Below, in pieces: positions 11,718 through 63,298 of a stretch of 64,000 nt of DNA. This DNA comes from a virus. Lineage: Duplodnaviria > Caudoviricetes. The stretch spans positions 1 through 64,000 of the IMG/VR virus record IMGVR_UViG_3300017909_003066, one strand, 5' to 3'. Position numbers and translations under genes: made by a program. The notes below the pieces were generated by a model, which was not told where the DNA came from, made no database searches, and worked only from the letters and a program-made list of their open reading frames with translations. The stretch's first letter is position 1; every line of letters begins with the position of its first letter.

Positions 11718-12446
11718 TTGTCAAGAGCGAAGCGAAAAGAACGTAATAGGGAACGTTCTCAAATGGGTAATATAACATATATTAATCCTATCCCTAGCAA
11801 AAGACGTCAAGTGGAGGTCCTTCCGAGGAACCTTAGCCAAGAAACTTATCTAGAAGAACTGAAAAACCTAAAAAGACACATAGTATTTGCTGTCGGACCA
11901 GCAGGTACAGGTAAAACACTTTTAGGTGTGCAAATGGCTATAAAACATTTTCAAGAAGGAAACGTGGATAAAATCGTGGTAACAAGACCCGCTGTAAGTG
12001 TGGATGAAAAACACGGTTTTCTTCCAGGCACACTAGAACAGAAAATGGAACCATGGACTAAACCAATATTTGACGTATTCAGTGAATACTTCTACTCAAA
12101 AGAAATAAGCGGTATGTTACAAGAGGGGGTGATCGAAATATCTCCGCTAGCCTTTATGCGTGGAAGAACGTTTAAGAAATCATATATTATTGCAGACGAA
12201 ATGCAAAATGCAACTCCTAGTCAGATGAAAATGTTATTGACTAGGATAGGCGAAAATAGTAGAATGGTTGTAACAGGAGATCTACAACAAGCAGATAGGA
12301 TGAATTCAAATGGTTTGTTAGATTTCATAAACAAAGTCAAGTTACGTGAAGACCTAAAACATATAGGTATATGCGGATTCGATGTTAAAGATATCGAAAG
12401 ACATGACGCAGTAAAGGAGGTTTTGGATATTTACGGCGAAAACTAA
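11718..12446 (+). CDS. phoH: PhoH-family ATPase
   Basis: [31 protein letters not shown] motifs; AAGGAGG SD; TAAATA at 11666. Confidence 0.96.
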
Positions 12447-12778
12447 TCTATATTTTTTGCCGGAATTGCTTTAAAAAATTTAGTTTTGTCCGACTGCCCA
12501 CTAAATTTTTTATAACCAGGCATTGGATCTTGAGTATCTGCAATATTAGGCCAACGTTCTGCAAAATATAAATTGTGTTTGTACCACGGATCTTCTTCAT
12601 CATCTGTTTGGTATATAGCATCTTCAGGACATTCAGGTACACATACACCACAATCAATACATTCTTGAGGATTAATTACAAGCATGTTTTCACCTTCGTA
12701 AAAACAATCTACAGGGCATACATCTACACAGGTTGTATGCTTACAATTTATACACTTATCATTTACTAAATGTGGCAT
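12443..12778 (-). CDS. fdxA: Dicluster (7Fe/8Fe) ferredoxin, FdxA-like
   Basis: [18 protein letters not shown] and [12 protein letters not shown] motifs. Confidence 0.9.
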
Positions 12779-20665: not shown

Positions 20666-22915
20666 TTATATCACCTTCCTTTTTGGAAATGCAATGTATT
20701 TATCGCCAAACTGGCCTTCTACACTGTCAATTACTAATCTATCCACGTCAAACTCTATTGTTTTAAAGTCAAAACCGCTATCTGTTATGTTTTCAAGTAT
20801 TTGAGCACCACTGCCTGGCTTTGCGTATGCTATAGGAACCGCTTTTGTGTATCCTAGTGCCGTGCCTGTGACTGTTTGTGTACTGCTCATCCATAACGGT
20901 AAGAACTTTTCATTAATATTTATGATTGTGCTATCACCCCTAGGAAAAATCTCTTTTAATCTTTCTTGCATATTTGTTACACTATTTGGGTATAAAAACT
21001 TGTTTATTAATTGATCAATAGATATTGTGTTTGTACTCACTTTGTATTTTTGTGTATCTACTGTAATTGCTTTTCCTATACTACTAATATCAACTGCTTT
21101 ACCAACACTGCCTTTTTGATTTTCAAATTCATCCATTAGTTCTACATATATTACTTCATAAATTATGTTGTTATTACTATCACTTGCAGTTGCTATTTTA
21201 GTACCGCCAAAACGGAAAGTTTTTCTGCTAAAGTTGTTAACCAAAGCAGGAACATATTCTTCGATTTTTAAAGTTTCTATACCATGTTGTAACAACATCT
21301 TAATTTGATTTTGTGTACCAAATGCTGGATCATTATTTCTATACAATAAATTTTCTGGAAAGATTTTATCATCAGTAATAAAATTATAAAAATATTCTCT
21401 TTTAGTTTTAGGTAAAAATGGTTGAAGGTATATATTACTGTACTGCGTTAATGTATCTGCTGTAACGGCAATTCTAAATTGTTTTTCTACAGCACTTTGT
21501 TGATAGTAATCTCTTGCTTGTACAGTAAATCTAAACTGTCTATCTACAGTAGTTGTACCACCGTCTAATACAAAACTATTTAAACCAAAATTAGCCAAAT
21601 CAATTGTAAGTAATCCATCTCCAGCACCTGCACTAGTTTCAAACTGATTCACTTTGCCAATCAGTTCACCACCTCCGCCTAAAATTAATCCAGGCGGTAA
21701 TACGCCACTAACAACACTGTATCTAATATCTGCGTTAGTCAAAATGGTATTTGCTTGTATTTGCAAAGTGGATGTTTGGTTAGGAGATAAAGTTCCTAAT
21801 AGTTCAGAAGAAATAAATTTAATTGTGCTGTCAACTTCGCCTTGAATTTTTAAAATAAATTGTCTTGTGTTAATTACTGATTCTTTTGTACTAGCATCTA
21901 CCCTCTTAACCTGTACGGTAAAAGTGTATGTTTGTGTAACTGCTGGTTGATATGGTACCTTGCCAAACAAAACACCGTTTTTAGAATCAACGCTCATTCC
22001 TTGGGGTAAAACACTTGCACTTGAATCAGCATTGTTAACTAATTCATATGTTATTGTTCCACTAAATTTATTTGGATCATAAACTTCTAAAGGAATAGTA
22101 ACATAGTTATTGGCTCTTTTGATCCCTAAATTACCTGTGGTTTTCCAAATTGGTGCTCTTAAGAATGTAGCACTTGAAATAAATGTTTGTGTATCAGCAC
22201 TTATTGATAATGTATCTGATCTAAAATTTTGTTCATTTACAACTAGTATTCTAAATCTTCTTCTGGCTCTTGTTACACCATCTGTAACATTTACAAAGAA
22301 TTCATAAAATCTGTTTAAGAATTTTGGTGCAGTTCCTTCACCACCGCCTCCATAATCATATGGAAATTGATCATATTGTTGTCTATCAAAATTATTACTT
22401 GCGGATTTATAATCAATTGTAAGTTCTGCTTCTAGTATACCTGTTAATCTTCCAGTTGGACTTAAAGTTATTCCTGGAGGTAATTCTCCAAAAAAATCAT
22501 CTAGATAATATTCTAGTGTATCGCCTGCAGATAAATCACTGTCATCGGCACTTAATTGAAAATCAACTATACTTCTATTAAGAATAAAAAATTCACCTTG
22601 AGGTCCAATTGGCAACGTTCCTGCTGGTGTTAGCCAAAAAGGAGCATCTTCTCCTTCAACTGTTATATGAAAAGTTCTGTCGTTAGATCCTTCATTATTA
22701 GTTGCTCTAATAACAAATTTATAAGTTGTTGTATCAGCAACTTCGAATGGAGTTCCAACTATTTGATTGTTTTGTAATCGTAAACCACCTGGAAGTGAAC
22801 CACTTAACAATGAATAACTGGTTGCATTATTTGCCGCAAGTGTAAATGTTTGTGTTGTTCTTTCTTGAACTGTTCCTAACGTACCTGCTGGTGTTGTCCA
22901 TACTGGTTTAGCCAT
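20666..22915 (-). CDS. Virion protein with tandem Ig-like (He_PIG-type) domains
   Basis: Repeated 'P-W-TPAG-L', 'G-LPPG-L', 'Y-F-V-A-D' units; TAAATA at 22936. Confidence 0.75.
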   Translation of the reverse strand: MAKPVWTTPAGTLGTVQERTTQTFTLAANNATSYSLLSGSLPGGLRLQNNQIVGTPFEVADTTTYKFVIRATNNEGSNDRTFHITVEGEDAPFWLTPAGTLPIGPQGEFFILNRSIVDFQLSADDSDLSAGDTLEYYLDDFFGELPPGITLSPTGRLTGILEAELTIDYKSASNNFDRQQYDQFPYDYGGGGEGTAPKFLNRFYEFFVNVTDGVTRARRRFRILVVNEQNFRSDTLSISADTQTFISSATFLRAPIWKTTGNLGIKRANNYVTIPLEVYDPNKFSGTITYELVNNADSSASVLPQGMSVDSKNGVLFGKVPYQPAVTQTYTFTVQVKRVDASTKESVINTRQFILKIQGEVDSTIKFISSELLGTLSPNQTSTLQIQANTILTNADIRYSVVSGVLPPGLILGGGGELIGKVNQFETSAGAGDGLLTIDLANFGLNSFVLDGGTTTVDRQFRFTVQARDYYQQSAVEKQFRIAVTADTLTQYSNIYLQPFLPKTKREYFYNFITDDKIFPENLLYRNNDPAFGTQNQIKMLLQHGIETLKIEEYVPALVNNFSRKTFRFGGTKIATASDSNNNIIYEVIYVELMDEFENQKGSVGKAVDISSIGKAITVDTQKYKVSTNTISIDQLINKFLYPNSVTNMQERLKEIFPRGDSTIININEKFLPLWMSSTQTVTGTALGYTKAVPIAYAKPGSGAQILENITDSGFDFKTIEFDVDRLVIDSVEGQFGDKYIAFPKRKVI

Positions 22916-22943: not shown

Positions 22944-25535
22944 TTAACTATCAAACTTGCTTTCGACCCACCAACTATTGTTGTACCATATTAAAGTTAC
23001 AGCACCGTATTCTGAATTTTGAGAAACATTTAAAGTGGATACAGCACCATTTATTGTTAAATTTACTACTAGATATCTATCTGGGTTTGTAGCACCCCCG
23101 TTTGTAGAATATGTTCCTCTATTAACCATTTTTATCAACTTACGTTGACCGTCTTCTTTGCCTGCGCCTAAGTTAGCATAGGCTAAATCTGCACCAACTG
23201 ACACCCAAGATTGAGTAGTAACAAACGATGCATACGAATCTGTGCTTAAAGTAACAGGAGTTGCAGTACCACTTATACTGACTGCTTGATTTCCAATATG
23301 CGAAAGCACACCGTCAATCCTAACATCTCCATCTAGATGAATATGTCCTGTACCTTGTGCAGTAATTACAAAGTTTGAATTTGATGGTACATCAAGTTGT
23401 GTACCTTCTATATGTATATTACCTATATCTGCTTTTGTTGAAACTGTATCAGTTGCAGTGATTTTTGTAGTAGTAATTACATTGTTTACACCGTCAACTA
23501 TTAAACTAGAATCATCAGCAAATACACTTCCTGTTAAGTCACCATCTACTGTTCCTACTGTGCTTATTGCTGTAATACCTAATGCGTTTACAAAACTTTG
23601 TGTTACTCTTGCATCAACTCTGCCGTCTGTATAATATAAATTTGTACCTTCAGTAAGTTCTGTAGTGGTATTATTTGTAAGTAAAACTTTGTTTGCTACA
23701 CCATCTACTATTAGTGTAGAGTCGTCACCAAATACACTTCCTGTTACATCTCCGTCTAAAGTTCCAACATGCGACCCTGTTGCATTACCTGTTAAGTTTG
23801 CTGTTACTGTCGACGCATTTATAGTTGTAAATGTACCCGTTCTATTTTGTCCATCAATAATTGGTGTTGAATCATCACTTACAATACTACCTTTTAAATC
23901 ACCTGTAAATGTACCTATAATATTAGTTGCTGTAACTGTTGTTCCATTTAAATTAGTTGCTGTAATTGTGCCACCATTAGTAATATTATTAGTGCCTAAG
24001 TCAATATTACCTGCCATTGTACCGCCTGCTTTTAACAAGCCGCCTGCCGTATTAATAAAAGCACTATCAACTACTGAAGTCAATGTAACAAATTCTACTG
24101 CTGATCCACTTGATGCAACTCTTAAAAACTTTCCTGCATCTGCGGCCGAACCTGCGTATGATGAAGGAGTATCTGTTAAGCCTACAAAAGTACTAGATCC
24201 GCCGCCACCGCCGCCTCCAGCACCCCATTCAAGAAGTGTTCCACTTGTTGGTACTTTTAAAACTTCTCCTGCGTTACCAATTGTATCTGGGAATTGATAT
24301 GCACCATAAAAGTCTACTTTACCTGAACCGTTTGCACTTAAAGTTAAATTTTTGTTTGATACGTTTGTTGTAATAGTGCCTTCGCCTATTTGTACTTCGT
24401 TAAGTGTTGCAATACCACTTGAATTAAATGCAAAGAATGATTGTTGTTCATTAACTGGTCTTGCATTTTGCACTGGAAGTAAAACTATTTCATTCACTGT
24501 ACCATCTACAATTCTACCACCTATACCACCTAGTGGCAATAAAGTATTATCTGTATCATTTGCAGTAAAGTTTAGAATTGCACCAAAGCCTGGTTGATAA
24601 GTTTGTCCACCTGTTAAGGACTTATCAACTACTGATTCAATAGTTACTGGAAATGCAGGTACAGTTGTGTTTGTAGAAATTGTTATAAATTCTGCTGGAA
24701 GATCAGGTCCTGATTGAACAATTAATGGACGTTCTTGACTTCTATAAGTTACCCCTAGTTGTGTTCCTAGTGTTCCTGCAATATTAATTTGTGCAGTATC
24801 AATAATGATGTTACCGTCACCTTTAATAGTTTGTTCGTTTGTATCTATTGGACCTGTAATTGTGCCTTGGAAACCTCCGTTTAAGTTTCCTGAAATAGTT
24901 TGACCTGAAGGTACAATTACTCCTGCGTTTGCTGTAATTGAACCATTTGCAGTCATATTACCTGTAAATGTTGATGTTGTGTTTACTAATAGTGTATCAG
25001 TGTCTAATGCTGTTGTGTCTATGCTTGTAATTGCTGTAATATTACCTGGTCCTGTAATGTTACTTGATAACATACTCAAGTTACCTGCAAGTTGTGGGTT
25101 TGGATCATTTACAACTTGAAAAGCACCTGTTATAACAACATCATTGCCGTTTCTAGTTGTAGTGATATTTGTGTTACCGCTTTTGATTCCTAATACTGCA
25201 CCTGATGTAGATGCTGTAATTTGATCACCGTTATCTACTTGTACTGCACCAAAGTCATTATCAGCAAGTCCGGTAGTGTCTAAGTAAATGCTATTGTCAT
25301 CATTTGTAATAGCAATTTTGCCATCTTGGTTTCTTAATGTTCTAAATTGTAAATCAACACCAACCTTGCTGTGAAAAACTCCTGTACCTACACCTTTATT
25401 AGATGCAGTATTCGTTTCACCACCAACGGCTAATAACTCTGCAAAGTTATCATTTACTTTCTCAAACGCGGCTCTTAGATCATCACCTGTTCCGTCATTT
25501 GCATTAGTACCAATGTTTATAGTTTTTATCGCCAT
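22944..25535 (-). CDS. Tail fibre/baseplate-attached protein
   Basis: T4 gp9/gp10-like N-terminus (INIGTNANDGTGDDLRAAFEKVNDNF), Thr/Gly-rich repeats, poly-Gly hinge. Confidence 0.8.
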   Translation of the reverse strand: MAIKTINIGTNANDGTGDDLRAAFEKVNDNFAELLAVGGETNTASNKGVGTGVFHSKVGVDLQFRTLRNQDGKIAITNDDNSIYLDTTGLADNDFGAVQVDNGDQITASTSGAVLGIKSGNTNITTTRNGNDVVITGAFQVVNDPNPQLAGNLSMLSSNITGPGNITAITSIDTTALDTDTLLVNTTSTFTGNMTANGSITANAGVIVPSGQTISGNLNGGFQGTITGPIDTNEQTIKGDGNIIIDTAQINIAGTLGTQLGVTYRSQERPLIVQSGPDLPAEFITISTNTTVPAFPVTIESVVDKSLTGGQTYQPGFGAILNFTANDTDNTLLPLGGIGGRIVDGTVNEIVLLPVQNARPVNEQQSFFAFNSSGIATLNEVQIGEGTITTNVSNKNLTLSANGSGKVDFYGAYQFPDTIGNAGEVLKVPTSGTLLEWGAGGGGGGGSSTFVGLTDTPSSYAGSAADAGKFLRVASSGSAVEFVTLTSVVDSAFINTAGGLLKAGGTMAGNIDLGTNNITNGGTITATNLNGTTVTATNIIGTFTGDLKGSIVSDDSTPIIDGQNRTGTFTTINASTVTANLTGNATGSHVGTLDGDVTGSVFGDDSTLIVDGVANKVLLTNNTTTELTEGTNLYYTDGRVDARVTQSFVNALGITAISTVGTVDGDLTGSVFADDSSLIVDGVNNVITTTKITATDTVSTKADIGNIHIEGTQLDVPSNSNFVITAQGTGHIHLDGDVRIDGVLSHIGNQAVSISGTATPVTLSTDSYASFVTTQSWVSVGADLAYANLGAGKEDGQRKLIKMVNRGTYSTNGGATNPDRYLVVNLTINGAVSTLNVSQNSEYGAVTLIWYNNSWWVESKFDS
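23490..23900 (-). repeat. Three degenerate internal peptide repeats GD(L/V)xGS(I/V)xxDDSxxIxDG
   Basis: GDLKGSIVSDDSTPIIDG / GDVTGSVFGDDSTLIVDG / GDLTGSVFADDSSLIVDG; boundaries approximate. Confidence 0.75.
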
Positions 25536-25556: not shown

Positions 25557-28500
25557 TTACAGTCGTCCAACTACAACTTCTATAGTTCCTACTTCACTTG
25601 AAGTGTAATCTTGTAGTGCTTTACCAATCACAGATCCTAGTTTTGGATTGTCGTTTGCAACACCAACACCTGGATTATCACTAGCAACAATCATATCACC
25701 TTTTTTAATTGTTCCTTGTACCTTACATGGAACACGCCCTTGTAGTGCAACTGCAACTACATTGTCACCTTCCATCTCAGCATTCATTAAGTGTGCTGGA
25801 TTTGTTGATACAATTCCTGCAATTTTTGTTGACATAAATTCATTTGATTGTGTAACTTCATTTGCACCACCAAACACAACGACTGTTCCTGGTTCATAAG
25901 TTTCGTCACCTAAATAGTTCTCAGCCAAGTCAGCAAATTGTGCCGCTGTTGCTGTACCATTGAAAGTTGTAGCAAAAATTGTATTGTATCTTGCGTTTGA
26001 GGCCCCGATATTATATGTGTTGTTTGCTGATGGTGTTAAAGCACGAGTTGTTAATGTGCCTGTCATTGTATCACCGCCGACGTTTACATAATCTCCATCG
26101 TGATTGTGATTGACAACTGTTGTTATACTTGCGTCTGCTGTACCATCAAATGACACACTTCCTGTAACTGCACCACTAAGAGTAATATTTCTTGCTGTTG
26201 TTAATTTTCTTGCACCACCTTCAAAAGTACTATCTGTTACTGTGTTGTTAACTGTTAATGCAGTAGCACCTGCTTGGTTTTGTAAAGTAAATCCGCCTGT
26301 TGTAGATGCTTTAATATTTGTTGTATTGTGTGTGGTAACATATGAATCATTCCAAAACTTATCAGTTGCACCTAAATCAAAAGTGTTTGTTGTTCTTGGT
26401 TTTATATCATTTGTGTTAAGTGCTGGAGTACCTGCACTGTTCATGCTAACACTACCGTCTGCCATAAGTGCACCAGCAAGTTTTACATTTTCAAAATCTG
26501 TTACGTCTGCACCATCTTCTACATTTAAAACTGTTCTTGCTTGAGTTGGTGTTAATGCTGTTACTGATGCATTGGAACTACCTTGTGGTACACCAACGAT
26601 ACTTGAAGCCGCTTGTTGTGTAAGTTTTTCTAAACCAACACCATCTGTTAGACCTGATGAAGTTTTTAATTCAACCCAACCATTTGTAACACTAAACTCT
26701 TGACTATCAAAACTTGCTACACCACTTGATTCTTGTAACAATCTACTGTTAACAATAAATCCACCTGCACCAAATGCCGTAAATCCTACTGTACCATCTA
26801 CTGCCGTTGTAAGTCCACTATCTGAATACAAGTTAAACTGTGTTGCACTTGTTACATCAACAAAGTAAGTATTTCCATTAAGTTCAATAGTTCCGCCTAC
26901 TCCACTAAATGTTACACTTTCTCCGTCATTTAAATCATGGTTAGTTGTTGTAGTAACTTGTATTGGATTATTAAGTGCAATAGTATTAACTGTTCTACCA
27001 CCTAATACATCACTTGTTCTTGATGTTGCAAGATTTAAGTTTAACTTGCTTTGTGCAATTTCCGCCTCAGCACTTACATCAGCATTTTTAATGGCACCGT
27101 TTGCTAGTGCAATTTGAATTGTGTTTCCTGCTCTTGTAAATCTTACATCGGATCCTGTACCGCTTGGTTCACCAAATATTCTAGAACCACTTGTACTATT
27201 TGTGGTTGTGTCTAATGCAACATTGGCCATTCCACTTATTGGATTGCCCAATCCGTCAACAGTGTTATTTCCTGTAAACATTAGTACATCTGTATTAGAT
27301 GGTGTACCTGTTACACTGACACCTTCTAATCCAGCAATACTATTTTGCGTATCAACATATTGTTTTGTTACAGCATCTGAACCATCAACAGGATCTCTTA
27401 GAGATTTAATTCTGTTTCCGTTCATATCAATAGTACCACTATCAAGTGTACTATCATTTAACATAGTGAAAGCAGTTACGTCTGTTCTTACACTGTCTGT
27501 AGTTGTTCCTCTAAACACATTATCAGCATATAGTTTGTTAATTGCATCTGTGTTATTTGTACCTTGGAATATATTTGTAATTTTGTTATTGTTAAGGTTC
27601 AACTCACCGTTCATTTTATTCCAAACAAGATTGGTACCATTGTAACCTGCTCTGTTTAGTAATCCAAACTGGCCACCTGTTTGTGAACCTGTTGTTGTTG
27701 GCTCACGGAAGTTTGCACCGTCTTCGTGCTGTCCTATAATAGCACTGTTAATATATTCTGCAATAGTTCCTTCTGTTGGAACTGAATCATCTGATAGTCC
27801 TTGCATTTTTCTATCAGTTGAAAATTCATCAATTGATGTTCCTTTTGTAAATTTAAGTGAATCAACATTTGTTAAACCAATGTTAGCATTAAGTTCAACT
27901 GAACCATCTCCTTGGTTAACACGGAAGAACTGCCCTACCCTAAAGTTACCATCTTGGTCTGTACTTGCATAGAATACTCTACCTGCGCCATCTTCTACTG
28001 CTTCGTTTGATTGTACAGCACTAAAGTCTGGTTTACCTTCAGGAGCACCAAAAACGTTATTTGGATAATTTGAATCTGCATAATTTCCCCAACCTATATT
28101 AAGGAAGTCGTGTCCAGTTGCTCTCATTGTACTAATTTTTGTAGTAATGGTTGTTGTAACACCACTGTTTAAATTAGCAGGTACACGTAAATCTAACAAG
28201 TGTTCTTGTATGTTTGAAACTGTTCCTGTTGGTTCGCTTACATCAAATCTTTCAACATTTAAAATTCTAAATACCTGTGCATCAATACCAACATTTAAAA
28301 ATCTAATTGCAGAACTTGGAAGTACTCTTGGAGCATCCAAAACATTTTTAAGTAATACTTTTCGTCCAACAGTTAAAGTAATTTTTGATCCATCAGCAAC
28401 CTGTGTTCCAACGCCAATATTAATTGCACTACCTAAATTTAGTTTTGCTCTACCACCAAAACCAGCCGTTGCACCACTTCCACTATAAGCACCATCTACA

Positions 28501-31500
28501 AGAGATGTTGCATTAAATCCTGATGATAAACCACTGTCTGTGTACAAGAAGAATTCTGTAGTTCCATTACCACTGGTAACATCTATATAATACGTTCCGT
28601 CAAATCCTGTTGAGAACCCGTTACCATCTAAGCCTGTAATTTGTACAACAGAGCCATGTCTAAATTTATGTGTTGCGGTTGTTGTTATTTTTGTTGCACT
28701 ACCTAGTGTAATACTTGCAATATCTTCATTGACTGGATCAATTTGGTTTACTACATATTCTGTAGTATCGTTGTTAGTCGCAAAAGGTGTTAATTCAAAT
28801 CTACTATCTTCAAATGGAAGGTAATCAAAGTTTCTAATTACTAACACTGTGTTTCCAGATGTGTTATCAGCACCAACTGTGTCTGCTTCTACAATTTGTG
28901 TATAGTCTGGATCAGGAGAACCTGTTGCTTGTGCGTTTACATGTCTAAAGAATGTCAAACCGCTTTGAATATTTTCGTTTGGATCTGAACCTTCTGCTTT
29001 AATACCAATACGTCCGTAAGCATTAGAACCATTTAATGATCTAATTTGTCCACCGTTTCTTGCCCAATATGCCGTATCACAGTAATACGTAAACACAGAA
29101 ACTGTTTCTATTAAACCTGCGTTTGTGGCAATTAAACCAAATCCATCTGAGTTAATCTGTGTGTAGTCATTTGATGTCATAGACTTGTTACCAGCAGTTT
29201 CTATTCTTATTTCTGTTCCTTGTGGAATATTACCAGTTAAGTTAGAACGCTGTCTCGATTGGATTAAAGTTGTAGATGAAAGTGTTAGTGTTTGTTTAAA
29301 TGTTCCGGCACCTAGTCCGTCATCTACAGGAGCAGTTGCTCCAATTACTCTGTAAGTAAATTTTTCAAAATCACTTACACCTGAAACAAATTGTCTACTA
29401 TCTTGATATAAAAATGTAGTTGGTAATTGTACTTCTCTTATTAAACCTTGTAGTGTAATTGTAGATCCTGTTGCAGGATTATCTACAACTGTTCCGTATT
29501 GCACACCTGCATTACCGTCAACAAGTTGTCCACCACCACCTTGTCCTGAGAATGAAGAACAAGTTTGCACATATGGTGACTTGGTTAAAATTTGTCCATC
29601 TGGATCAAGTGTCATTACGAAACCTTGATGTCTACGTAATGTTAAGTTTCTTAAAATAATCGCGTTATTACATAGGAACATATCCATATGTTGGTTTAGT
29701 TTTTTCAACTCAATTACAGTATTGTTGTTTATTGTTGCCTGTAAAGTTGTTGTAGTAGTTGTATTGATATCAGAATAAAGATTTCCTCTCCATCTTGATT
29801 GATCTCCTACTGCATCTGGATCACTTGACCAACCTTTTACATAATAGGTTACACCACCATTTTCAAAATACATGCCATTGACTGGAGGGTACGCAAGATC
29901 TTTTACTGATATAGTGCTTTGTCCTAATGTGTTAATTGGTGTGCCAGTTGAGTCTGCACGTGAATACTGTGAATCATAATGTTTTCTAAACCTTGCTTCT
30001 TTTGGTAATGAGGTACCGTTGTATCTTAAAAGGTCACCTCTTTCAAACGTCATGTTTAAAGAACGTGTAACTGGTCTAATGCCTAACTTAGGTTGTATAA
30101 TAGTTCTTCTAAATTCGTCACCTTTAAGTGAAACGTTTTCAGGGAGTACAATAGGAAAGTCTTCTTCATATACACCCGATTCAACGAATATTGTAATTTC
30201 AGGTTGCGGAATGTTCTGTTCTCTTCCTTCTCCGCCTGTTTTTGCTGGAGCAACGCCTGTACCGTTTGTTATAACATTTGTTATAATGTTCATAAGGGTT
30301 ACAATAGTAGTTGATGCTCCTGCCTCTGCTGTAATACTAGTATCAACAAATTGTGTAAAGCCGCTTTGGTTACTGAATGTTCCTTCTTCTACAGGTAATG
30401 ATCCTAAACCTGCATTGATTACAGTAGTAATCATATTCATAAGTGTTGTTACGATTGCATCAGCACCTGACTCACCTAAACTATTTCCAATAAATTGTTG
30501 TGTTGCTGTTTGTTTAGATGTAAATGCATTATTATCTAAAATAAAGTTTAAAACAATATTCTTTGCATAATTTAATGCATCAATTGTTTGTGCTTGTTGT
30601 CCTGCGATTTGACTTGTTGCACCATCCCAATAACTTGCGGCATTGATTCTTGATTTAGTGTTACCACCAAATTTAATATCAAATGCAACACCTTCTAAAA
30701 TTGATTTTGTATCTCTTTTAAATTTTACTGGATCATAAGTAAATCCTGAATAGATTCCAGTTCCGTTTGCAATATTTTCATTAATGTATGCAACTACTTC
30801 GTCTGCTACGTAATCTGCGTTTTTTGTAATTAATTCATGTGCGTTTGGAAACCTTGTATTCTGTGATGGCACATAAGGAGTATTAGTTAATACGTTGTTA
30901 ACAATTAAATCTCTAGCAAAATTAATTGCCGCAACTGTTTGTGGTTGCTGTCCTGCAACTCTTGATGTAGCACCGTCCCAATAACTTAATGCGGCATCAA
31001 CGGTTTTTGAATTACCAACATAAGTCAAATCAAAACTTACAGCATCAATAATTAAACCAATATCTCTAAAGCATTTTTCTCTGTTAAATGTAAAGTTACT
31101 TGCAAAACTATCTGAATCATCACCGTCATTTATTTCATATTCAATAAATGCTAAAGTTTCTTCTTGTACAAATCTTCTGTTTTCTACAAGTAATTTATTT
31201 GCCAATACATTAGTTAAATCTTCTGTTCCGTCTGCCGCCAAATTGATTGTATATGGTCCAGGCTTTTTGCTTGGTACTGGCCAATAAACATCACCTGTAT
31301 ATAAACCTTGGTCTTTAAGAACTATATCACCTTTCATAATACGCTCTGCGTAAAAACATGCTTCTCTTACTGTGTTAAAAGCACGTGACTGTGAGCGTCC
31401 AATTAATGATTGGTCTACACCTGCCGCCTTCATTTGTGCTTCAGTTGTACCTGTCTTGCTTACAAAGATATTATTTTTACTTGTAAAACTTGAACTGTCT

Positions 31501-32138
31501 ACATAGGATTTTGTTGCCGCAGTTTTTCCATCATCGTCGAATCTAGGATTAGAACTTAAAACAAGTGGACCAGTCATTGTGTCCCCTGCTTTTGCTACTT
31601 TACTATCTGCGTACTGTTTGTTTACTGCTTCATCATTAAGTGTAGGTGTTCTTGGATCATTACCATTACGTAATAAAATTTGTCCTGTTGCTGTGTCTCC
31701 TGTTACATCAAGAAAGTTGTTATCAGCATACTGTTTTGTAACTGCATCTTGTGCCTTTGTAGGATCAGCAAGTCCTTCAATTTGAAATGTGTTTGCATCA
31801 AGTGTTCCACCAAGTTGTGGAGAAGTATCTCTTACAACTTCTGTACCTGTATTTCTTAAAATAACTTTAGTTGGATCAGTAGCACTGTCAATAGTTAAAC
31901 CATCACCTTCTAATATTTTTTCAACTACTGCATCACCTGTTGCATTTGTACCTAAAATTTTATTTGCTGTTAAAGATGCTGGTGTATTATCTAAGTTTTG
32001 AAAGTTAAGTCCGCCACCTAAACCTAATGCCGCATATATCTCAACAAAGTTTTGGTTGACTTTATCAAAACCTACTCTAATACTATCACCGGTAGCGTCA
32101 TTACCCGTAGTACCAATGTTTACTTCTTTACGTGCCAT
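25557..32138 (-). CDS. Giant (2193 aa) tail-fibre/virion protein with C-terminal intramolecular-chaperone-like domain
   Basis: Same gp9/gp10-like N-terminus, DA(V/A)xKxYxD fibre repeats, beta-helix-like middle, C-terminal ADLAENY...VALQGRVPCKV. Confidence 0.85.
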   Translation of the reverse strand: MARKEVNIGTTGNDATGDSIRVGFDKVNQNFVEIYAALGLGGGLNFQNLDNTPASLTANKILGTNATGDAVVEKILEGDGLTIDSATDPTKVILRNTGTEVVRDTSPQLGGTLDANTFQIEGLADPTKAQDAVTKQYADNNFLDVTGDTATGQILLRNGNDPRTPTLNDEAVNKQYADSKVAKAGDTMTGPLVLSSNPRFDDDGKTAATKSYVDSSSFTSKNNIFVSKTGTTEAQMKAAGVDQSLIGRSQSRAFNTVREACFYAERIMKGDIVLKDQGLYTGDVYWPVPSKKPGPYTINLAADGTEDLTNVLANKLLVENRRFVQEETLAFIEYEINDGDDSDSFASNFTFNREKCFRDIGLIIDAVSFDLTYVGNSKTVDAALSYWDGATSRVAGQQPQTVAAINFARDLIVNNVLTNTPYVPSQNTRFPNAHELITKNADYVADEVVAYINENIANGTGIYSGFTYDPVKFKRDTKSILEGVAFDIKFGGNTKSRINAASYWDGATSQIAGQQAQTIDALNYAKNIVLNFILDNNAFTSKQTATQQFIGNSLGESGADAIVTTLMNMITTVINAGLGSLPVEEGTFSNQSGFTQFVDTSITAEAGASTTIVTLMNIITNVITNGTGVAPAKTGGEGREQNIPQPEITIFVESGVYEEDFPIVLPENVSLKGDEFRRTIIQPKLGIRPVTRSLNMTFERGDLLRYNGTSLPKEARFRKHYDSQYSRADSTGTPINTLGQSTISVKDLAYPPVNGMYFENGGVTYYVKGWSSDPDAVGDQSRWRGNLYSDINTTTTTTLQATINNNTVIELKKLNQHMDMFLCNNAIILRNLTLRRHQGFVMTLDPDGQILTKSPYVQTCSSFSGQGGGGQLVDGNAGVQYGTVVDNPATGSTITLQGLIREVQLPTTFLYQDSRQFVSGVSDFEKFTYRVIGATAPVDDGLGAGTFKQTLTLSSTTLIQSRQRSNLTGNIPQGTEIRIETAGNKSMTSNDYTQINSDGFGLIATNAGLIETVSVFTYYCDTAYWARNGGQIRSLNGSNAYGRIGIKAEGSDPNENIQSGLTFFRHVNAQATGSPDPDYTQIVEADTVGADNTSGNTVLVIRNFDYLPFEDSRFELTPFATNNDTTEYVVNQIDPVNEDIASITLGSATKITTTATHKFRHGSVVQITGLDGNGFSTGFDGTYYIDVTSGNGTTEFFLYTDSGLSSGFNATSLVDGAYSGSGATAGFGGRAKLNLGSAINIGVGTQVADGSKITLTVGRKVLLKNVLDAPRVLPSSAIRFLNVGIDAQVFRILNVERFDVSEPTGTVSNIQEHLLDLRVPANLNSGVTTTITTKISTMRATGHDFLNIGWGNYADSNYPNNVFGAPEGKPDFSAVQSNEAVEDGAGRVFYASTDQDGNFRVGQFFRVNQGDGSVELNANIGLTNVDSLKFTKGTSIDEFSTDRKMQGLSDDSVPTEGTIAEYINSAIIGQHEDGANFREPTTTGSQTGGQFGLLNRAGYNGTNLVWNKMNGELNLNNNKITNIFQGTNNTDAINKLYADNVFRGTTTDSVRTDVTAFTMLNDSTLDSGTIDMNGNRIKSLRDPVDGSDAVTKQYVDTQNSIAGLEGVSVTGTPSNTDVLMFTGNNTVDGLGNPISGMANVALDTTTNSTSGSRIFGEPSGTGSDVRFTRAGNTIQIALANGAIKNADVSAEAEIAQSKLNLNLATSRTSDVLGGRTVNTIALNNPIQVTTTTNHDLNDGESVTFSGVGGTIELNGNTYFVDVTSATQFNLYSDSGLTTAVDGTVGFTAFGAGGFIVNSRLLQESSGVASFDSQEFSVTNGWVELKTSSGLTDGVGLEKLTQQAASSIVGVPQGSSNASVTALTPTQARTVLNVEDGADVTDFENVKLAGALMADGSVSMNSAGTPALNTNDIKPRTTNTFDLGATDKFWNDSYVTTHNTTNIKASTTGGFTLQNQAGATALTVNNTVTDSTFEGGARKLTTARNITLSGAVTGSVSFDGTADASITTVVNHNHDGDYVNVGGDTMTGTLTTRALTPSANNTYNIGASNARYNTIFATTFNGTATAAQFADLAENYLGDETYEPGTVVVFGGANEVTQSNEFMSTKIAGIVSTNPAHLMNAEMEGDNVVAVALQGRVPCKVQGTIKKGDMIVASDNPGVGVANDNPKLGSVIGKALQDYTSSEVGTIEVVVGRL

Positions 32139-32141
32139 ATG

Positions 32142-32465
32142 TTAAACTCCGAAACTTTCTCCGCAACCACACGAACTAGTTGCATTAGGATTGACAATAC
32201 TCATATAAGAGCCAAATACTTCCTTTTTATAGTCAATTGTAGTACCTGCTACATACATTAAACCTATACCATCTATTAAAAACTTGCCATTTGCAAGTTC
32301 AATTTGCTCGTCACCTTTTGATATTTCTTCTACTGCTTTCCATTCATACTGAAAACCAGCACATCCACCGCCTTTTACACTTAATTTAACGTAAGGTTTT
32401 TGCTCACGTTCAATGATGTTTTCCATGTGTTCTTTAGCAGAATCTGTGATATTTACGATGCTCAT
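32142..32465 (-). CDS. iscA: A-type Fe-S carrier (IscA/HesB)
   Basis: GGGCAGFQY and NPNATSSCGCGESF. Confidence 0.95.
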   Translation of the reverse strand: MSIVNITDSAKEHMENIIEREQKPYVKLSVKGGGCAGFQYEWKAVEEISKGDEQIELANGKFLIDGIGLMYVAGTTIDYKKEVFGSYMSIVNPNATSSCGCGESFGV

Positions 32466-32522
32466 ATCAATATTTAGTTTAAAATTTTGTAATCCGAATG
32501 TAAACGATTAAATACTTTAGAA

Positions 32523-33522: not shown

Positions 33523-34074
33523 TTATTCTGTAAGTGTAATTACCCCACAAGCAAGTCTTTTGCCTGCATTTCCGGTCTTAAGTGATTCGTCGTCTCCGCC
33601 CATTCCCAAATCATCTTCATCTTCATGAACCACTAAAGCACGACCTATAATTGATCTATCTCCAAATAGATCAACACGTTTTGCTATTATTGTGAAATCG
33701 GCTACGCCGTTTGTTCCCGCTACGACATTTTCTAAATCACCAACATGTCCTTTATCAAGTCCACCGTGATTAACATTGTCTGGATTATAATGAGCACCAG
33801 CACTGTCGCAACCATCTGATAGATCACCGTATTCATGTATATGAAAACCATGTTTTCCTGGAGTAAGTCCTGTTATCTTACCAACAATCATAGTTGGTTG
33901 TTCTGGAGACAACTGTCTAAACAGTATTGTTCCTTTGACTTTGTCTGAATGTTCTAACACACATTTACCTGTGATAGGTTCCTGTGATTCGTTTATTGCT
34001 TTGATTTTAGAACAATGGCATTCCATGGCCCTCGTTCTAGGACAACGTTTATCGGATATTTCATTCAGTTTCAT
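33523..34074 (-). CDS. sodC: Cu/Zn superoxide dismutase
   Basis: [40 protein letters not shown]. Confidence 0.96.
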
Positions 34075-34167: not shown

Positions 34168-35253
34168 TTAACCAAATGTATAGGCTTTTGTTTCAAAACT
34201 TGACTGATAGGACCCTCTGCTAAAATCCTCATCTCGCTCATAGCAATATTTAGCCAATTCGAAAGATGCAAGATTCTTTGCTTTCGATTCAACCATTATA
34301 TCAGCAGTTTCGTTAAAAGATAATGCCCAATCATTTACTGCTTTATTCCACATAAAATCGCTGTGTGCTCTTAACTTTTGTTTTTTAAAACCTTGTTCAA
34401 GCAGTTCATTCATGTTTGGAAGTGTATTTGAATTATGACCTTCTAGTAAATCTTCACGTGATACTGAATAATGTATAACAGGTCGAACACCACGCCAACT
34501 ATCTATTATGCGTAGATATCTATCGTCGGTGGGTTGTATGTATTCTCCACTAGCGACCCAGTGATGGTGTATGTCAAGTACGAGTGCGACATGTTTTTCA
34601 AGTTCGAGTGACGCATCGATGCCCCACGACATTTCGTCATTTTCGATTGTAATAACATTTTTCGCTTCTTGAGATAATCTTGGGAGGACATTAATGATAC
34701 CGGTTGGACCTTGTCTGCCCGATATATGGACATTGCATTTAAAGTCTTGGAAGGATTTTCCGTAACCCATCCACCTGATGACATCAACATGATATTCAAA
34801 CTCCTCTATACTTCTATTTACGATATCAGGATTATCTGACGCAAGTACAGTAAACTGACCAGGATGCATAGAAAGCCTAACATCCAGTTCACGAGCCTTT
34901 GCGCCGACGACTGATAGGTGCTTTTCACAATATTCTCGTACATCAGGCTTCCGCCAGAAATAGCACCAAGTAGGCTCAGTATAAACAGGTAGGACGTCAC
35001 TTCCCAACCTAACCATTCTAAGTTCATTCGGTAATCCTCCAACATATTCAATTAAGTTTTCAAATGATTTGATATTGTGTTCCATAATGTCCCACAATCT
35101 TTGTTCAGCAACTTCTGTAGTTTGTCTGTTTAACCATGCAACTGTTGTACTTCGTGTATTCAAAGGACGTTGAACTTCCTCTAACAGTTTTTTACGCATA
35201 GTTTGATCAGGATACATATACTTACATGCAAAACCAATTCTTCTTATTGTCAT
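34168..35253 (-). CDS. uvsE: UV-damage endonuclease UvsE/UvdE
   Basis: IGFACK, RLSMHPGQF, IENDE, LDIHHHW, AHSD, MVESKAKN; start moved to MTIRRIG (ATGA overlap). Confidence 0.93.
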   Translation of the reverse strand: MTIRRIGFACKYMYPDQTMRKKLLEEVQRPLNTRSTTVAWLNRQTTEVAEQRLWDIMEHNIKSFENLIEYVGGLPNELRMVRLGSDVLPVYTEPTWCYFWRKPDVREYCEKHLSVVGAKARELDVRLSMHPGQFTVLASDNPDIVNRSIEEFEYHVDVIRWMGYGKSFQDFKCNVHISGRQGPTGIINVLPRLSQEAKNVITIENDEMSWGIDASLELEKHVALVLDIHHHWVASGEYIQPTDDRYLRIIDSWRGVRPVIHYSVSREDLLEGHNSNTLPNMNELLEQGFKKQKLRAHSDFMWNKAVNDWALSFNETADIMVESKAKNLASFELAKYCYERDEDFSRGSYQSSFETKAYTFG

Positions 35254-35945
35254 ATATACCTTCTCAATATTTCCCAAGTTTCTTTATAATCACTTACATG
35301 ATAACATGTACCTCTATCGTTGTCAAGTATTACTTTTTTCAACGGATAATCATTGCCATCTTTGTCCATTCTATCCCCAAAGAACACTATTTCTCCGTCT
35401 ATCCAATCTAAAATTTGTGCTTTATCTTTTCCCTTTGGAAATATATCAATACCAGTTTCTCCTCCAACTAATGCTTCAATTGCCGGAAATTGTCTTTTAA
35501 ATGTGTTTGCTATTCTTATGCGTTCTTGCTTTTCAATATCCCAAGCCACATACATTTTACGTTCTGCCATTGTTGCATTTCTGCCAACAATACTAAAGTT
35601 ACACATACCAGGTCTGTGTTCAAAATGTAAACCTGTGCGTAAAGGAAATTTACTTTGTTTTAGTTCAATATCAAGCATTTCTTCTGCTTCCGTCGGCAAT
35701 TGCCATTCGCTTGTATAAAAGTTTTTTGATCCTTTCCAAACATCACTTCCAGAACAGTTAAAACAATAGTCAACATTTCCAGTAATCATCATACCTAGTT
35801 GTTCACGTGTTTTTGCAATATCACTTCCTGTTACTAAACTAACATGATTATTGTTTATAAAAGAAAGAAACCAAGTTTGAAAACTAGGATCTATTACTTG
35901 TCTACTAGGTGTAAGTGTTCCGTCTACGTCAAAAACAAAATGCAT
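35250..35945 (-). CDS. HAD-IIB phosphomannomutase (PMM-like)
   Basis: FDVDGTLT, LVTGSD, NFSIVGR, GGETGIDIFP, FFGDRM--DGNDY. Confidence 0.85.
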   Translation of the reverse strand: MHFVFDVDGTLTPSRQVIDPSFQTWFLSFINNNHVSLVTGSDIAKTREQLGMMITGNVDYCFNCSGSDVWKGSKNFYTSEWQLPTEAEEMLDIELKQSKFPLRTGLHFEHRPGMCNFSIVGRNATMAERKMYVAWDIEKQERIRIANTFKRQFPAIEALVGGETGIDIFPKGKDKAQILDWIDGEIVFFGDRMDKDGNDYPLKKVILDNDRGTCYHVSDYKETWEILRRYI

Positions 35946-35946
35946 T

Positions 35947-36819
35947 TTAACTCCAATTTATTTCTACCCAAGGATCTTCGCAGTTATGAGGATTAGGATC
36001 TCCATGGAAAACACAAATACAACATTCTGCAGGAGGTTTTACATCTTCAATTTGTGCAAATTTTCTATTACCTTTAGCACCAGATTTTAAAGTCCTGTCT
36101 TTGCGTACTTCCCATTTCCAACTTCTAATCCACTCGTCTGGCCATAAAGTTGCAGTACCTTTAGCACTTGTCCATAACCAGTCCTGATCTCCAAAATGAG
36201 TACTGATGATTTTTTGTGGATTTGAAATAAAATCAGTCCACACATGTCTAAGTTGTCCATGTTTAAATCTTATTACACTAGAATTATATTTTTGCCAACC
36301 AGGTTGCATGGCTCTTGTAAAATCTCTAATTACACACCACTTCCCTGGTTGAAAAGTAAAAAGTTTATTCAAGTTACCACTTATGACAACATCTAAATCC
36401 ATATAAAGAATATTACTGTCTTCTGGTAAGGGTAAATCAGGTGAATACATGTAAGGCTTACACCACCAACCAGATAGTTCTTTAGGTAAATCTAAACATA
36501 AAATATTTTCGTTTATATCTTTTTTATTATCGGTAAGACAAACCATTTTAAAAGGTATAGTTAAGTTACGTTTAACCATACTATACAATGTGTTAACGTA
36601 TTTCGCTGAATACTTGTCGCCGTGTTTAAGGCAAAGCACATAATTATTTTCTTTGTTATCAAACATGTCAGCAGTAGGTGAACCAGAAACTTTTCTTTTA
36701 AGTTCATCAAATGCTTGTTGTTCTGCTTGTTTTTTATTCTGTAATTTTTCTTTTCGTTTTTGTGCTTGTAAGATTCTAAATTCTTCTTTTGTATATTTGC
36801 TTTTATCTAATTTTGCCAT
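35947..36819 (-). CDS. Putative GT-A glycosyltransferase
   Basis: CLKHGDKY, WWCKPYMY, YMDLDVVI (DxD), YNSSV, GDQDW, FHGDPNP. Confidence 0.75.
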   Translation of the reverse strand: MAKLDKSKYTKEEFRILQAQKRKEKLQNKKQAEQQAFDELKRKVSGSPTADMFDNKENNYVLCLKHGDKYSAKYVNTLYSMVKRNLTIPFKMVCLTDNKKDINENILCLDLPKELSGWWCKPYMYSPDLPLPEDSNILYMDLDVVISGNLNKLFTFQPGKWCVIRDFTRAMQPGWQKYNSSVIRFKHGQLRHVWTDFISNPQKIISTHFGDQDWLWTSAKGTATLWPDEWIRSWKWEVRKDRTLKSGAKGNRKFAQIEDVKPPAECCICVFHGDPNPHNCEDPWVEINWS

Positions 36820-37490
36820 TCATCTACGTCCTTGGGTGAATTAATTTCAATTCCGTTAAAGTCAACATGTGAACAACCTATTTCCCAAGCATTTTTTAAC
36901 CAGCGAAGTTGTTCTAATCCTTCTATATTTTCTTCTTCGGGTACTTCTAAATCGTTGTACAGCCTTAAAGCATTTTCTCTATAACCATATATACCTAGGT
37001 GATGTTCACCGTAACCTTTAAATCCTCTTGCACACCAAAGCACTTGGTCACCTGCTCTAACTAACTTAACTGTGTTAGGATCATTTTGTTTTTCCTTTGT
37101 CATTGTTGTGTAAACAGTTGAAATAGGATAATACTTTAACCACTCAATTACTCTATTAATTATCTCTATAGAAATGTCTGGCATGTCTCCTTGAACATTT
37201 ACAAAATAATCATAATTTTCAAGTTTGTTAAATTTACTTACTGCACCAGAACATCTTTCTGTACCGTTTGTATAGGGTGCTATGTGTTCTTCTTCAATCC
37301 AACAATTATCAGCACCAAACAAATTAAAAATACGCATATCATCTGTAAGCACGTATGTCTTAATTCCTGTTGAATAACAAACATCATATACACGTTTGAT
37401 CATAGGAACACCATCTAATAGTGTTAAAGGTTTTCCTGGAAAACGTGTACTTTTGTATCTAGCGGGTATAAGAATAGCGGTGGATTTCAT
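36807..37490 (-). CDS. kdsB: CMP-KDO synthetase
   Basis: IPARYKSTRFPGKPL, NVQGD-P, HLGIYGY, EGLEQLRWL. Confidence 0.92.
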   Translation of the reverse strand: MKSTAILIPARYKSTRFPGKPLTLLDGVPMIKRVYDVCYSTGIKTYVLTDDMRIFNLFGADNCWIEEEHIAPYTNGTERCSGAVSKFNKLENYDYFVNVQGDMPDISIEIINRVIEWLKYYPISTVYTTMTKEKQNDPNTVKLVRAGDQVLWCARGFKGYGEHHLGIYGYRENALRLYNDLEVPEEENIEGLEQLRWLKNAWEIGCSHVDFNGIEINSPKDVDEWQN

Positions 37491-62054: not shown

Positions 62055-62747
62055 TTATTTTATCTTTGGAAATAAAGCATCTGTGCAAAATAGTTCAACA
62101 TCTGCTTCAGCAAGTCCTAATGACTTCATTACACGTGGTGTATGCGGGTTTTGTTGCTGATTATGACAGTAGTAGTTTTGTGCTCCAGTAATCATATCAA
62201 TTGTGCTATTACCTGTATATTCTCCAACACTATCAAACCATACATCTAAGTTTGATAATGCAAGATCGATAATAGTATCTGCTTCTTCGTCTGTGTTGAC
62301 ATTACTAGCCGCAATCATACTAGGTGTAAAAATGTTAGTTGCCCATTCTGGTAACTCACGTTTTTTACTAGGTACATAATCTGCTACTGCTTCTTCATAC
62401 CATTTTACCATAGGATGATCAGAATCTGGACTAGGTGAAAAATCATGAAATGCACCTGTCATTTTGTTTTTACCAGCAATTACGTCAAATCCATATATTG
62501 GAGCATCATTTGTAAGCACAGGAAAACAACATACATGCATCATCCACAAACCCTTAGATTCACGTACATCAACAACATCGATGTGCATTCTACGAACATC
62601 TTTGTTTGCCCATACTCTATTCAACCAACCGTTTTCAGGTTGATTAAACTGTGCCATTAATGGCTCGTTAATTTCTTCGCCTCTTTCATCAAAAATTTCT
62701 ATAATTTTATCTTGACATTCAATTAACTTATTCCAAATTCTACTCAT
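62055..62747 (-). CDS. pcyX: Ferredoxin-dependent bilin reductase, PcyX-type
   Basis: W-NR-W, RRMHIDVVD, GLWMMH-C-FP, PIYGFDVIAG, GAFHDFSP, RELPEWA--IF, Q--YC--Q-QNPHT; follows heme oxygenase. Confidence 0.88.
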   Translation of the reverse strand: MSRIWNKLIECQDKIIEIFDERGEEINEPLMAQFNQPENGWLNRVWANKDVRRMHIDVVDVRESKGLWMMHVCCFPVLTNDAPIYGFDVIAGKNKMTGAFHDFSPSPDSDHPMVKWYEEAVADYVPSKKRELPEWATNIFTPSMIAASNVNTDEEADTIIDLALSNLDVWFDSVGEYTGNSTIDMITGAQNYYCHNQQQNPHTPRVMKSLGLAEADVELFCTDALFPKIK

Positions 62748-63282
62748 TACTTAATTCCTTGAATAATTCTGTTGCAAATTCAAAACACTTGATTGCTTCG
62801 CCAACAAATATTTCTTCTTTGCCTTCTAATCTACTTCTTACTTTTGCAATTAATTCTTTTTCTTTCCCATCAAATTTATAATAGTGTCCTTCTCCTGGTA
62901 CACGTCGAGCAATCATTTGTCCACCATGAAGATCACCAAAGTGTCGGACATAGATATGAGCAAGTAATAAAATAGGTTTAAAATTGTAAAGATGATGTAC
63001 CCAATTCGTATACTTAATTGCAGATTTCTTTATTATAAAACCACCGTACATCAGTTGATCGATATCTTTTTTAATAGCATCTGCCCTACATATATCTTCA
63101 ATGCCATCTAAAATTCCTGCCTTTTTTGCCCAGCGTTCTAGTGCTTCATAAATGATATATTGATTTGCAAGATACTCAGCATAACTCTCATCAGTAAGTT
63201 CACCTTTGAGTAACTTTCTAGCAAAGTTTTGACGTTCTGCGTTTTTGTGAAAATCCCATGTCAGTTCTTTAAGAGTAGCCAT
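62740..63282 (-). CDS. hemO: Heme oxygenase
   Basis: LKELT---HKNAE (proximal His), AHIYVRHFGDLHGGQMI; TAAATA 5 nt before ATG. Confidence 0.92.
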   Translation of the reverse strand: MATLKELTWDFHKNAERQNFARKLLKGELTDESYAEYLANQYIIYEALERWAKKAGILDGIEDICRADAIKKDIDQLMYGGFIIKKSAIKYTNWVHHLYNFKPILLLAHIYVRHFGDLHGGQMIARRVPGEGHYYKFDGKEKELIAKVRSRLEGKEEIFVGEAIKCFEFATELFKELSNE

Positions 63283-63298
63283 GCAGATATTTACCTAA

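Follow-up and report, generated by a model that had tools for sequence, protein, structure and literature searches.

The stretch of DNA analysed here, called the window below, comprises positions 1 to 64,000 of the IMG/VR virus record IMGVR_UViG_3300017909_003066 (Duplodnaviria; Caudoviricetes). Its minus strand encodes a giant tail-fibre protein with two tandem helical domains that resemble phycobiliproteins, the bilin-binding antenna proteins, together with enzymes that make a bilin. Since the full record spans 109 kb and is estimated to be 31% complete, its source is an uncultured marine jumbo phage with a genome of roughly 350 kb. The fibre gene and its repeats are located as follows.

25557..32138, minus strand: giant tail-fibre open reading frame (ORF), 2193 amino acids (aa), baseplate-anchored (ORF call, PHROG and Pfam matches)
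30858..31232, minus strand: repeat 1 (residues 303-427), phycobiliprotein-like, with an intact K-C-x-R-D-I-G motif (repeat hidden Markov model (HMM), AlphaFold2 model, closest PDB folds)
31071..31073, minus strand: codon of Cys356 in repeat 1, the equivalent of the phycobiliprotein bilin-attachment Cys84 (profile-to-PDB alignment, conservation)
30504..30881, minus strand: repeat 2 (residues 420-545), phycobiliprotein-like, in which Cys is replaced by Phe473 (codon 30720-30722) and Arg-Asp is retained (repeat HMM, two-repeat AlphaFold2 model)

The first-pass annotation of this DNA had described a 2193-aa fibre with two tandem helical repeats and placed a Cys codon at 31071-31073 in the first repeat, with no Cys in the second. 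The ORF is present, the repeat HMM finds both units (residues 299-427, E = 2e-35; residues 419-543, E = 8e-33), and the two positions are occupied by Cys356 and Phe473, as described. Each repeat is helical and about 120 aa long, with a period of 117 aa, and the two share 36% identity. The sequence EKCFRDIG begins at residue 354 in repeat 1, and VKFKRDTK begins at residue 471 in repeat 2. Throughout 25 orthologues of the window's clade, the Cys, Arg and Asp of repeat 1 are invariant. Because most orthologues of the window fibre retain the Cys of repeat 2 as well, Phe473 represents a recent loss. Both modules are placed near the baseplate-proximal end of this late-expressed fibre.

A homologue search with fibre residues 300-620 returned 237 proteins. 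About 35 of them are orthologues of 2130-2500 aa (54-95% identity); the others are roughly 1800-3800 aa long and only 25-33% identical, their very high bit scores being due to the many repeat copies. Repeat counts were taken over 121 retrieved giant fibre proteins, which contain 1394 repeat domains according to the HMM, with 2 to 22 copies per protein among those examined. Because the same unit recurs this often, the two-repeat pattern of the window fibre is far beyond chance. Up to 22 C-x-R-D sites occur in one protein, where they make up most of its cysteines. Conservation was calculated from 1227 well-aligned copies (1189 distinct sequences) and amounts to 98% for the Cys, 98% for Arg(+2), 99% for Asp(+3), 90% for Gly(+5), and 100% for both Asp(+14) and Tyr(+30).

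T4-like cyanophages and uncultured jumbo phages from aquatic habitats both carry the module family, in their giant baseplate/fibre proteins. A survey of 50,697 cultured phage genomes recovered the module from cyanophages only, in 44 records with the window query and in 365 with the Syn9 query (286 Synechococcus, 60 Cyanophage, 18 Prochlorococcus and 1 Marine), and not in the pelagiphages and enterobacterial T4-like phages of that set. A megablast search of the fibre gene against cultured phages gave no match, and a search for stand-alone single-domain homologues (63-228 aa) recovered nothing but gene fragments on short contigs. A literature search found no paper that describes the module. Two further observations concern the family. 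Syn9-type repeats (L182, Syn9 73923-75422) keep the Cys and the second Asp and carry Asp or Thr instead of Arg; this C-x-[D/T]-D subfamily with its altered site is widespread among cyanophages. In three unrelated contigs, a 128-aa ORF without a Pfam match adjoins giant multi-repeat fibre genes (L001:19820-20206, L005:1594-1980, L006:1598-1984) and may be a candidate for a chaperone or a lyase.

The relation to phycobiliproteins is seen at the level of the family. The Pfam profile of the phycobilisome proteins, PF00502, has a gathering threshold of 22.2 bits, which is exceeded by the fibre homologues P0004 (38.1 bits), P0039 (46.7 bits; encoded on a 358-kb NCBI contig) and P0118 (27.3 bits). 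The match of P0039 covers profile positions 27-139 of 155, and the three homologues together cover 18-148 of 155. When repeats were scanned singly, 8 of 67 matched PF00502 and no other family recurred. A profile built from the 67 repeats was also compared with all PDB sequences. Phycobiliproteins accounted for 22 of its 23 matches, nearly all of them phycocyanin alpha chains, the best being 6jpr_A (E = 0.004). The aligned stretch begins in helix B, ends at the G-G that follows helix E, and pairs the repeat Cys with Cys84. A gapless likeness of repeat 1 to the phycocyanin chromophore helix had been claimed in the first-pass annotation, and real PDB sequences match the helix in these HMM alignments with the Cys in that place. 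A single-sequence phmmer search of the PDB with residues 300-620 retrieved nothing relevant.

Structure prediction, which the same annotation had recommended as a check, recovered the globin-like phycobiliprotein fold for repeat 1. The AlphaFold2 model has five helices, a predicted local distance difference test score (pLDDT) of 86.6 and a predicted template modelling score of 0.78. In Foldseek, all top matches were phycobiliproteins, with template modelling scores of up to 0.71 and E-values of only ~0.1. VIA-align superimposed the model on phycobiliproteins with a Z of 11.3 and a root-mean-square deviation of 2.6-2.8 Å over 103-111 residues, model residues 1-119 aligning with phycobiliprotein residues ~27-149. 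An unbiased comparison with 48,161 PDB representatives placed members of the phycobiliprotein family in all of the top seven positions, among them allophycocyanin (Z 11.0), the bilin domain of ApcE (10.7) and a photocobilin (10.3), followed by colicin pore domains (9.3) and sensor globins (~8). The two-repeat model shows the five-helix pattern twice at a pLDDT of 77, with an uncertain orientation between the domains. Three independent lines thus concur on phycobiliprotein homology: the Pfam threshold, the PDB profile search and the predicted fold. The domains are very probably true relatives of the phycobiliproteins, with the attachment triad intact in repeat 1.

The next matter is whether this site is functional. 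In phycobiliproteins, the chromophore site is Cys84-x-Arg86-Asp87; repeat 1 has it in the form K-C356-F-R-D-I-G, and repeat 2 has Phe in place of the Cys. Arg-Asp is retained in 1194 of 1202 repeats with the Cys versus 11 of 25 without it (Fisher p = 7e-21, a value inflated by the fact that the 25 cases probably go back to about a dozen independent losses). Of the Cys-less repeats, 18 have Phe, Tyr or Trp where the Cys would be, and in all 25 the Asp at +14 (Asp61) and Asn21 stay at 100%. As far as the alignments can tell, the Cys84/Arg86/Asp87-type triad is the family's most conserved feature and behaves as one functional unit. Its coupled decay and the aromatic replacements would be the pattern expected for a ligand pocket that is lost and filled, rather than for a residue that maintains the fold. 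Each domain contains a single Cys, which excludes an intradomain disulfide. At this candidate site, covalent binding of a bilin is about evenly balanced between true and false.

The fibre gene belongs to a late structural region, and the following features precede it.

32142..32465, minus strand: gene for an IscA/HesB-like A-type iron-sulfur (Fe-S) carrier, which heads the fibre operon (PF01521, 7.6e-18)
32471..32476, minus strand: TAAATA late-type promoter motif, 5 nt ahead of the ATG of the IscA-like gene (sequence reading)

Because TAAATA-N5-ATG precedes the IscA-like gene and the stop codon of this gene lies 3 nt from the fibre ATG, the two genes form a single late-type operon. The same order of an IscA-like and a fibre gene is found at an orthologous locus (L004, 1674-1997; 69% identical). 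The IscA-like product may serve the maturation of the phage ferredoxin, or else the fibre. The fibre protein itself matches the PHROG tail-fibre families 9851 (1.6e-52), 19602 and 5342, and short segments of it match the T7 tail-fibre N-domain and E1_FCCH in Pfam. An N-terminal PF07880 (T4_gp9_10) domain appears as a weak precomputed match in fibre orthologues and gives no match in the window protein. A fibre homologue in Syn9 carries the annotation 'structural protein'. The protein thus resembles known tail-fibre families and is encoded in a late structural operon, two features of T4-like baseplate and tail-fibre proteins.

The window also encodes the means of making a bilin. Heme oxygenase (HemO), a PcyX-type reductase and a ferredoxin had all been reported in the first-pass annotation, as had a TAAATA late-type motif shared with the structural genes. 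All of these are present, the ferredoxin being of the Fer4 type, and TAAATA-N5-ATG stands before hemO as it does before the fibre operon.

62740..63282, minus strand: heme oxygenase, HemO (PF01126, 2.1e-22)
63288..63293, minus strand: TAAATA late-type promoter motif, 5 nt ahead of the hemO ATG (sequence reading)
62055..62747, minus strand: ferredoxin-dependent bilin reductase of the PcyX/PcyA clade (PF05996, 4.4e-18)
12443..12778, minus strand: bacterial-type 7Fe/2x[4Fe-4S] ferredoxin (Cys motifs; Fer4 1.9e-10, DUF3470)

The window's reductase shares 54% identity with its counterpart in Pelagibacter phage Mosig EXVC030M. The ferredoxin is a possible electron donor to both HemO and the reductase; a plant-type ferredoxin (Fer2, PF00111) was not found. 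A non-cyanobacterial host is probable, as psbA was found neither in the 109-kb record nor in a 92%-complete relative. All five long contigs whose reductase is 68-73% identical encode repeat fibres as well, and two more contigs turn up in both the repeat list and the reductase list, these contigs being relatives of the window's phage and hence non-independent. Only one of the long repeat-bearing contigs is near-complete (328 kb, 92%); in it, the HemO and reductase genes lie side by side, and psbA is absent.

Taken together, these elements can be arranged into a scheme. Late in infection, HemO would cleave host heme open to biliverdin, which the PcyX/PcyA-clade reductase, with electrons from the phage ferredoxin, would convert to phycoerythrobilin or phycocyanobilin. 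The bilin would then be bound in repeat 1 of the newly made fibre, probably by a thioether bond to Cys356, the attachment being either autocatalytic, as in ApcE and the bilin-biosynthesis-associated globins (BBAGs), or the work of an unknown lyase. Repeat 2, with its Phe473, would be an empty structural copy. The chromophore might either stabilise the module or render the baseplate-proximal fibre light-responsive. As the best explanation of the whole, a bilin-loaded repeat 1 in a late-made fibre has, in our estimate, an even chance of being correct. The first-pass reading is supported as to the phycobiliprotein fold and the Cys84-equivalent position of the Cys, the triad being under very strong, coupled selection, but its term 'pigmented virion' is overstated for one site per chain. 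The shield against ultraviolet light or singlet oxygen proposed alongside it was rejected as implausible, since one site per chain provides too few chromophores. A classical photoswitch would call for a different bilin or a different photochemistry, because phycoerythrobilin, which PebS and PcyX make, has no C15=C16 double bond and so cannot photoisomerise. If it is what the window's reductase makes, a structural or fluorescent role, or one as sensitiser, would be more likely than a photoswitch.

A light-responsive fibre would bear on the adsorption of cyanophages. P-HM1 and P-HM2 are reported not to adsorb in the dark, and S-PM2 to require light for adsorption, independently of photosynthesis in the host; P-SSM2 and P-SSP7 adsorb without light (PMC6628666). 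A profile search found four repeats in P-HM2 (in its 4458-aa gp7 and a 3682-aa ORF), nine in S-PM2 and three in Syn9, and no repeat in P-SSM2 and P-SSP7; P-HM1 has the module in its gp7. Among the repeats read, K-C-x-R-D is kept at eight sites in S-PM2 and at two in the gp7 of P-HM2. P-HM1 and P-HM2 carry pebS, ho1 and cpeT though their host has no phycobilisomes, and P-SSM2 has pebS and ho1 and lacks cpeT (PMC3037559). Of the 16 genomes in that paper, those of P-SSM2, Syn1, S-SM2 and S-SSM7 are without cpeT. In S-PM2, a cpeT-like gene is located 1.5 kb upstream of a repeat-bearing ORF. The presence of the module matches light-dependent adsorption, a match that is suggestive only, as it rests on four or five phages, two of them close relatives. 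That the modules are virion-borne bilin chromophore domains which make baseplate triggering or adsorption light-dependent is an unlikely, tentative extension of the bilin-loaded fibre. Within the S-PM2 record (NC_006820.1, 160447-173094; L171), the CpeT-like gene and a 2-oxoglutarate-Fe(II) oxygenase gene lie immediately upstream of the repeat-bearing 3792-aa ORF; in the RefSeq record, about 15 tRNA features fall within this frame, apparently through a coordinate error in the annotation.

Several results weigh against a bilin-bearing fibre. Neither the window protein nor its repeat 1 matches PF00502, and the link of the window repeats to this family is transitive, via the family HMM, because the window protein itself is under the threshold. 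The X-Y hairpin and the last helix (H) of phycobiliproteins are absent from the module, for which a period of 117 aa leaves no space, and the pocket may differ as a result. Z-scores of ~11 are unexceptional for helical bundles. Together with the modest Foldseek E-values, the missing PF00502 match and these middling Z-scores also speak for an unrelated helical bundle whose likeness to phycobiliproteins is due to convergence or chance. Such a bundle leaves out of account that family members exceed the gathering threshold, that the repeat profile retrieves phycocyanins almost exclusively with the motif in register, and that phycobiliproteins fill the top seven places among 48,161 structures; it is barely credible and already close to refuted. 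Other objections concern the bilin genes. The co-occurrence of C-x-R-D fibres with such genes, which the first-pass annotation had proposed as a check, holds for the five reductase contigs and the 92%-complete relative, although these counts are phylogenetically non-independent, and it fails elsewhere. Nine repeat-bearing fragments (24-47% complete) yielded no reductase (P ~0.03 if every such phage had the gene at a random position). P-SSM2 has pebS and ho1 yet no repeat, and Mosig, whose genome is complete and includes hemO and pcyX, contains neither a repeat nor a C-x-R-D motif in any of its ORFs. Since Mosig contains no phycobiliprotein-like module anywhere, its bilin must have another target; with Mosig and P-SSM2 both making bilins in the module's absence, the idea that hemO and pcyX exist solely to load the fibre was rejected. 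The module occurs where bilins are available, from the host or the phage, and bilin genes also occur without it. Lastly, a CpeT-type lyase turned up neither in the 109-kb record nor in five relatives, an absence that, by analogy, would be compatible with lyase-independent attachment of the BBAG or ApcE type.

The missing lyase, and the finding that repeats and bilin genes each occur without the other, also fit the main rival to a bilin-loaded fibre, a purely structural shaft unit. On this view, an ancestral cyanophage would have acquired a phycobiliprotein-like globin, from which the module would descend as a chromophore-free unit; C-x-R-D would be maintained because folding, or contact with other domains or chains, requires it. 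The way in which modules are strung 2-22 times along fibre shafts, the lack of stand-alone copies in the 63-228 aa search, and the invariant Asp (Cys+14), Tyr (Cys+30) and Asn21, which have no phycobiliprotein counterpart, are what such a unit would lead one to expect. Fold upkeep does not explain why precisely the three chromophore-binding residues are best conserved, nor why they decay jointly when the Cys is lost while Asp61 and Asn21 persist; with a single Cys per domain, an intradomain disulfide cannot supply the reason. A structural shaft unit is a real possibility, though a somewhat unlikely one. It is less probable still that the Cys/Arg/Asp site holds something other than a bilin, such as an interchain disulfide or an interchain metal or Fe-S centre that the IscA-like carrier could serve. 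T4 fibres do bind iron and zinc, the IscA-like gene comes first in the fibre operon here and in one orthologue, and a SufT-like gene is nearby. This association is confined to the window's clade, however, as no such gene adjoins the giant multi-repeat genes in L001, L002, L005 and L006, and maturation of the phage ferredoxin explains the IscA-like and SufT-like genes equally well. One Cys per domain with Arg and Asp is no known ligand set for Fe-S or zinc, and the bulky aromatics in place of the Cys suggest a filled pocket over a lost metal ligand. A non-bilin ligand is improbable for these reasons.

The nearest pelagiphage homologue, of 1246 aa in Mosig, aligns only with residues 650-1511 of the window protein, and the module is accordingly an insertion in the fibre protein. 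In Mosig (MT647606.1, 35653-44330; L007), a ferrochelatase-like gene, four 2-oxoglutarate-Fe(II) oxygenase genes, hemO and pcyX form one block by the neck genes.

Around the fibre operon of the window, further genes were noted, all on the minus strand. Downstream of the fibre gene lie genes for a 749-aa protein with He_PIG immunoglobulin-like domains (20666-22915) and an 863-aa protein without a Pfam match (22944-25535), both of which probably belong to the same fibre/baseplate set. Upstream of the operon are genes for a SufT-like Fe-S assembly protein (PF01883, 32807-33259), a Cu/Zn superoxide dismutase (PF00080, 1.7e-47, 33523-34074) and a UvdE ultraviolet-damage endonuclease (PF03851, 34168-35277), which together constitute an oxidative-stress and light-stress set. 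Next, at 35250-38235, comes a series of sugar and KDO-type genes: one is phosphomannomutase-like, one matches GT8 weakly, one encodes a cytidylyltransferase resembling CMP-KDO synthetase, and one a member of the KdsA/DAHP-synthase family. They suggest that the phage alters host envelope sugars.

The role of phage heme oxygenases, bilin reductases and the CpeT-like lyase has been termed 'a mystery' or 'unresolved' (PMC3037559, PMC2984593, PMC11480375). A structural protein with up to 22 intact attachment-type sites is a candidate both for accepting the bilins that phages make and for sensing light. It turns two puzzles into testable questions: why phages, even those of hosts without phycobilisomes, carry these genes, and how the adsorption of some cyanophages depends on light independently of host photosynthesis. 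If the bilin-loaded, light-responsive fibre were true, it would represent the first case of a photoreceptor within a virus particle, would explain the decades-old observation of light-dependent cyanophage adsorption, and would show what the bilin genes pebS, pcyA, pcyX, ho1 and cpeT are for in phages. S-PM2 and P-HM2 are available in culture. Should the modules bind bilin, they would moreover provide small tandem fluorescent protein scaffolds.

Among known systems, the T4-type baseplate and fibre proteins (gp7, gp9/gp10, long and short tail fibres) share with the window protein a late structural operon and the PHROG tail-fibre matches, as well as a gp9/gp10-like N-terminus in its orthologues (a weak match); in P-HM1 and P-HM2, the modules reside in a protein annotated as gp7. 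They differ in that the module is limited to cyanophages among the cultured phage records and is found in no other hosts' phages. ApcE attaches its bilin without a lyase. Like the fibre, it carries a phycobiliprotein-like domain inside a large multidomain protein, and this domain (PDB 4xxi) is the second-best structural match of repeat 1; unlike the fibre, it has one such domain, with the attachment Cys at another position, and is part of a host antenna. BBAGs and photocobilins (PDB 8j2y, 8j2w) are phycobiliprotein-type globins of non-photosynthetic organisms that are linked to heme oxygenase and bilin reductase genes, and the photocobilin match to repeat 1 noted above belongs to this group. 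BBAGs have been reported to self-assemble with bilin (PMC10151467). These proteins are soluble bacterial proteins or photoreceptors, neither virion parts nor tandem arrays, and no close sequence link between them and the module was found here.

The closest comparison is with the alpha and beta subunits of the phycobiliproteins (CpcA/B, ApcA/B, CpeA/B; PF00502). These are free proteins of 160-180 aa in an antenna, whereas the module is a tandem unit in a virion protein of 2000-4000 aa, set in a phage baseplate or fibre and bearing a putative chromophore. The module is without the X-Y hairpin, which serves alpha-beta pairing, and without the last helix, and it has invariants of its own in the Asp at Cys+14 and the Tyr at Cys+30. 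What it shares with the subunits is the globin-like core of helices A, B, E, F' and G, together with the K-C-x-R-D-[IV]-G helix, whose Cys, Arg and Asp line up with Cys84, Arg86 and Asp87.

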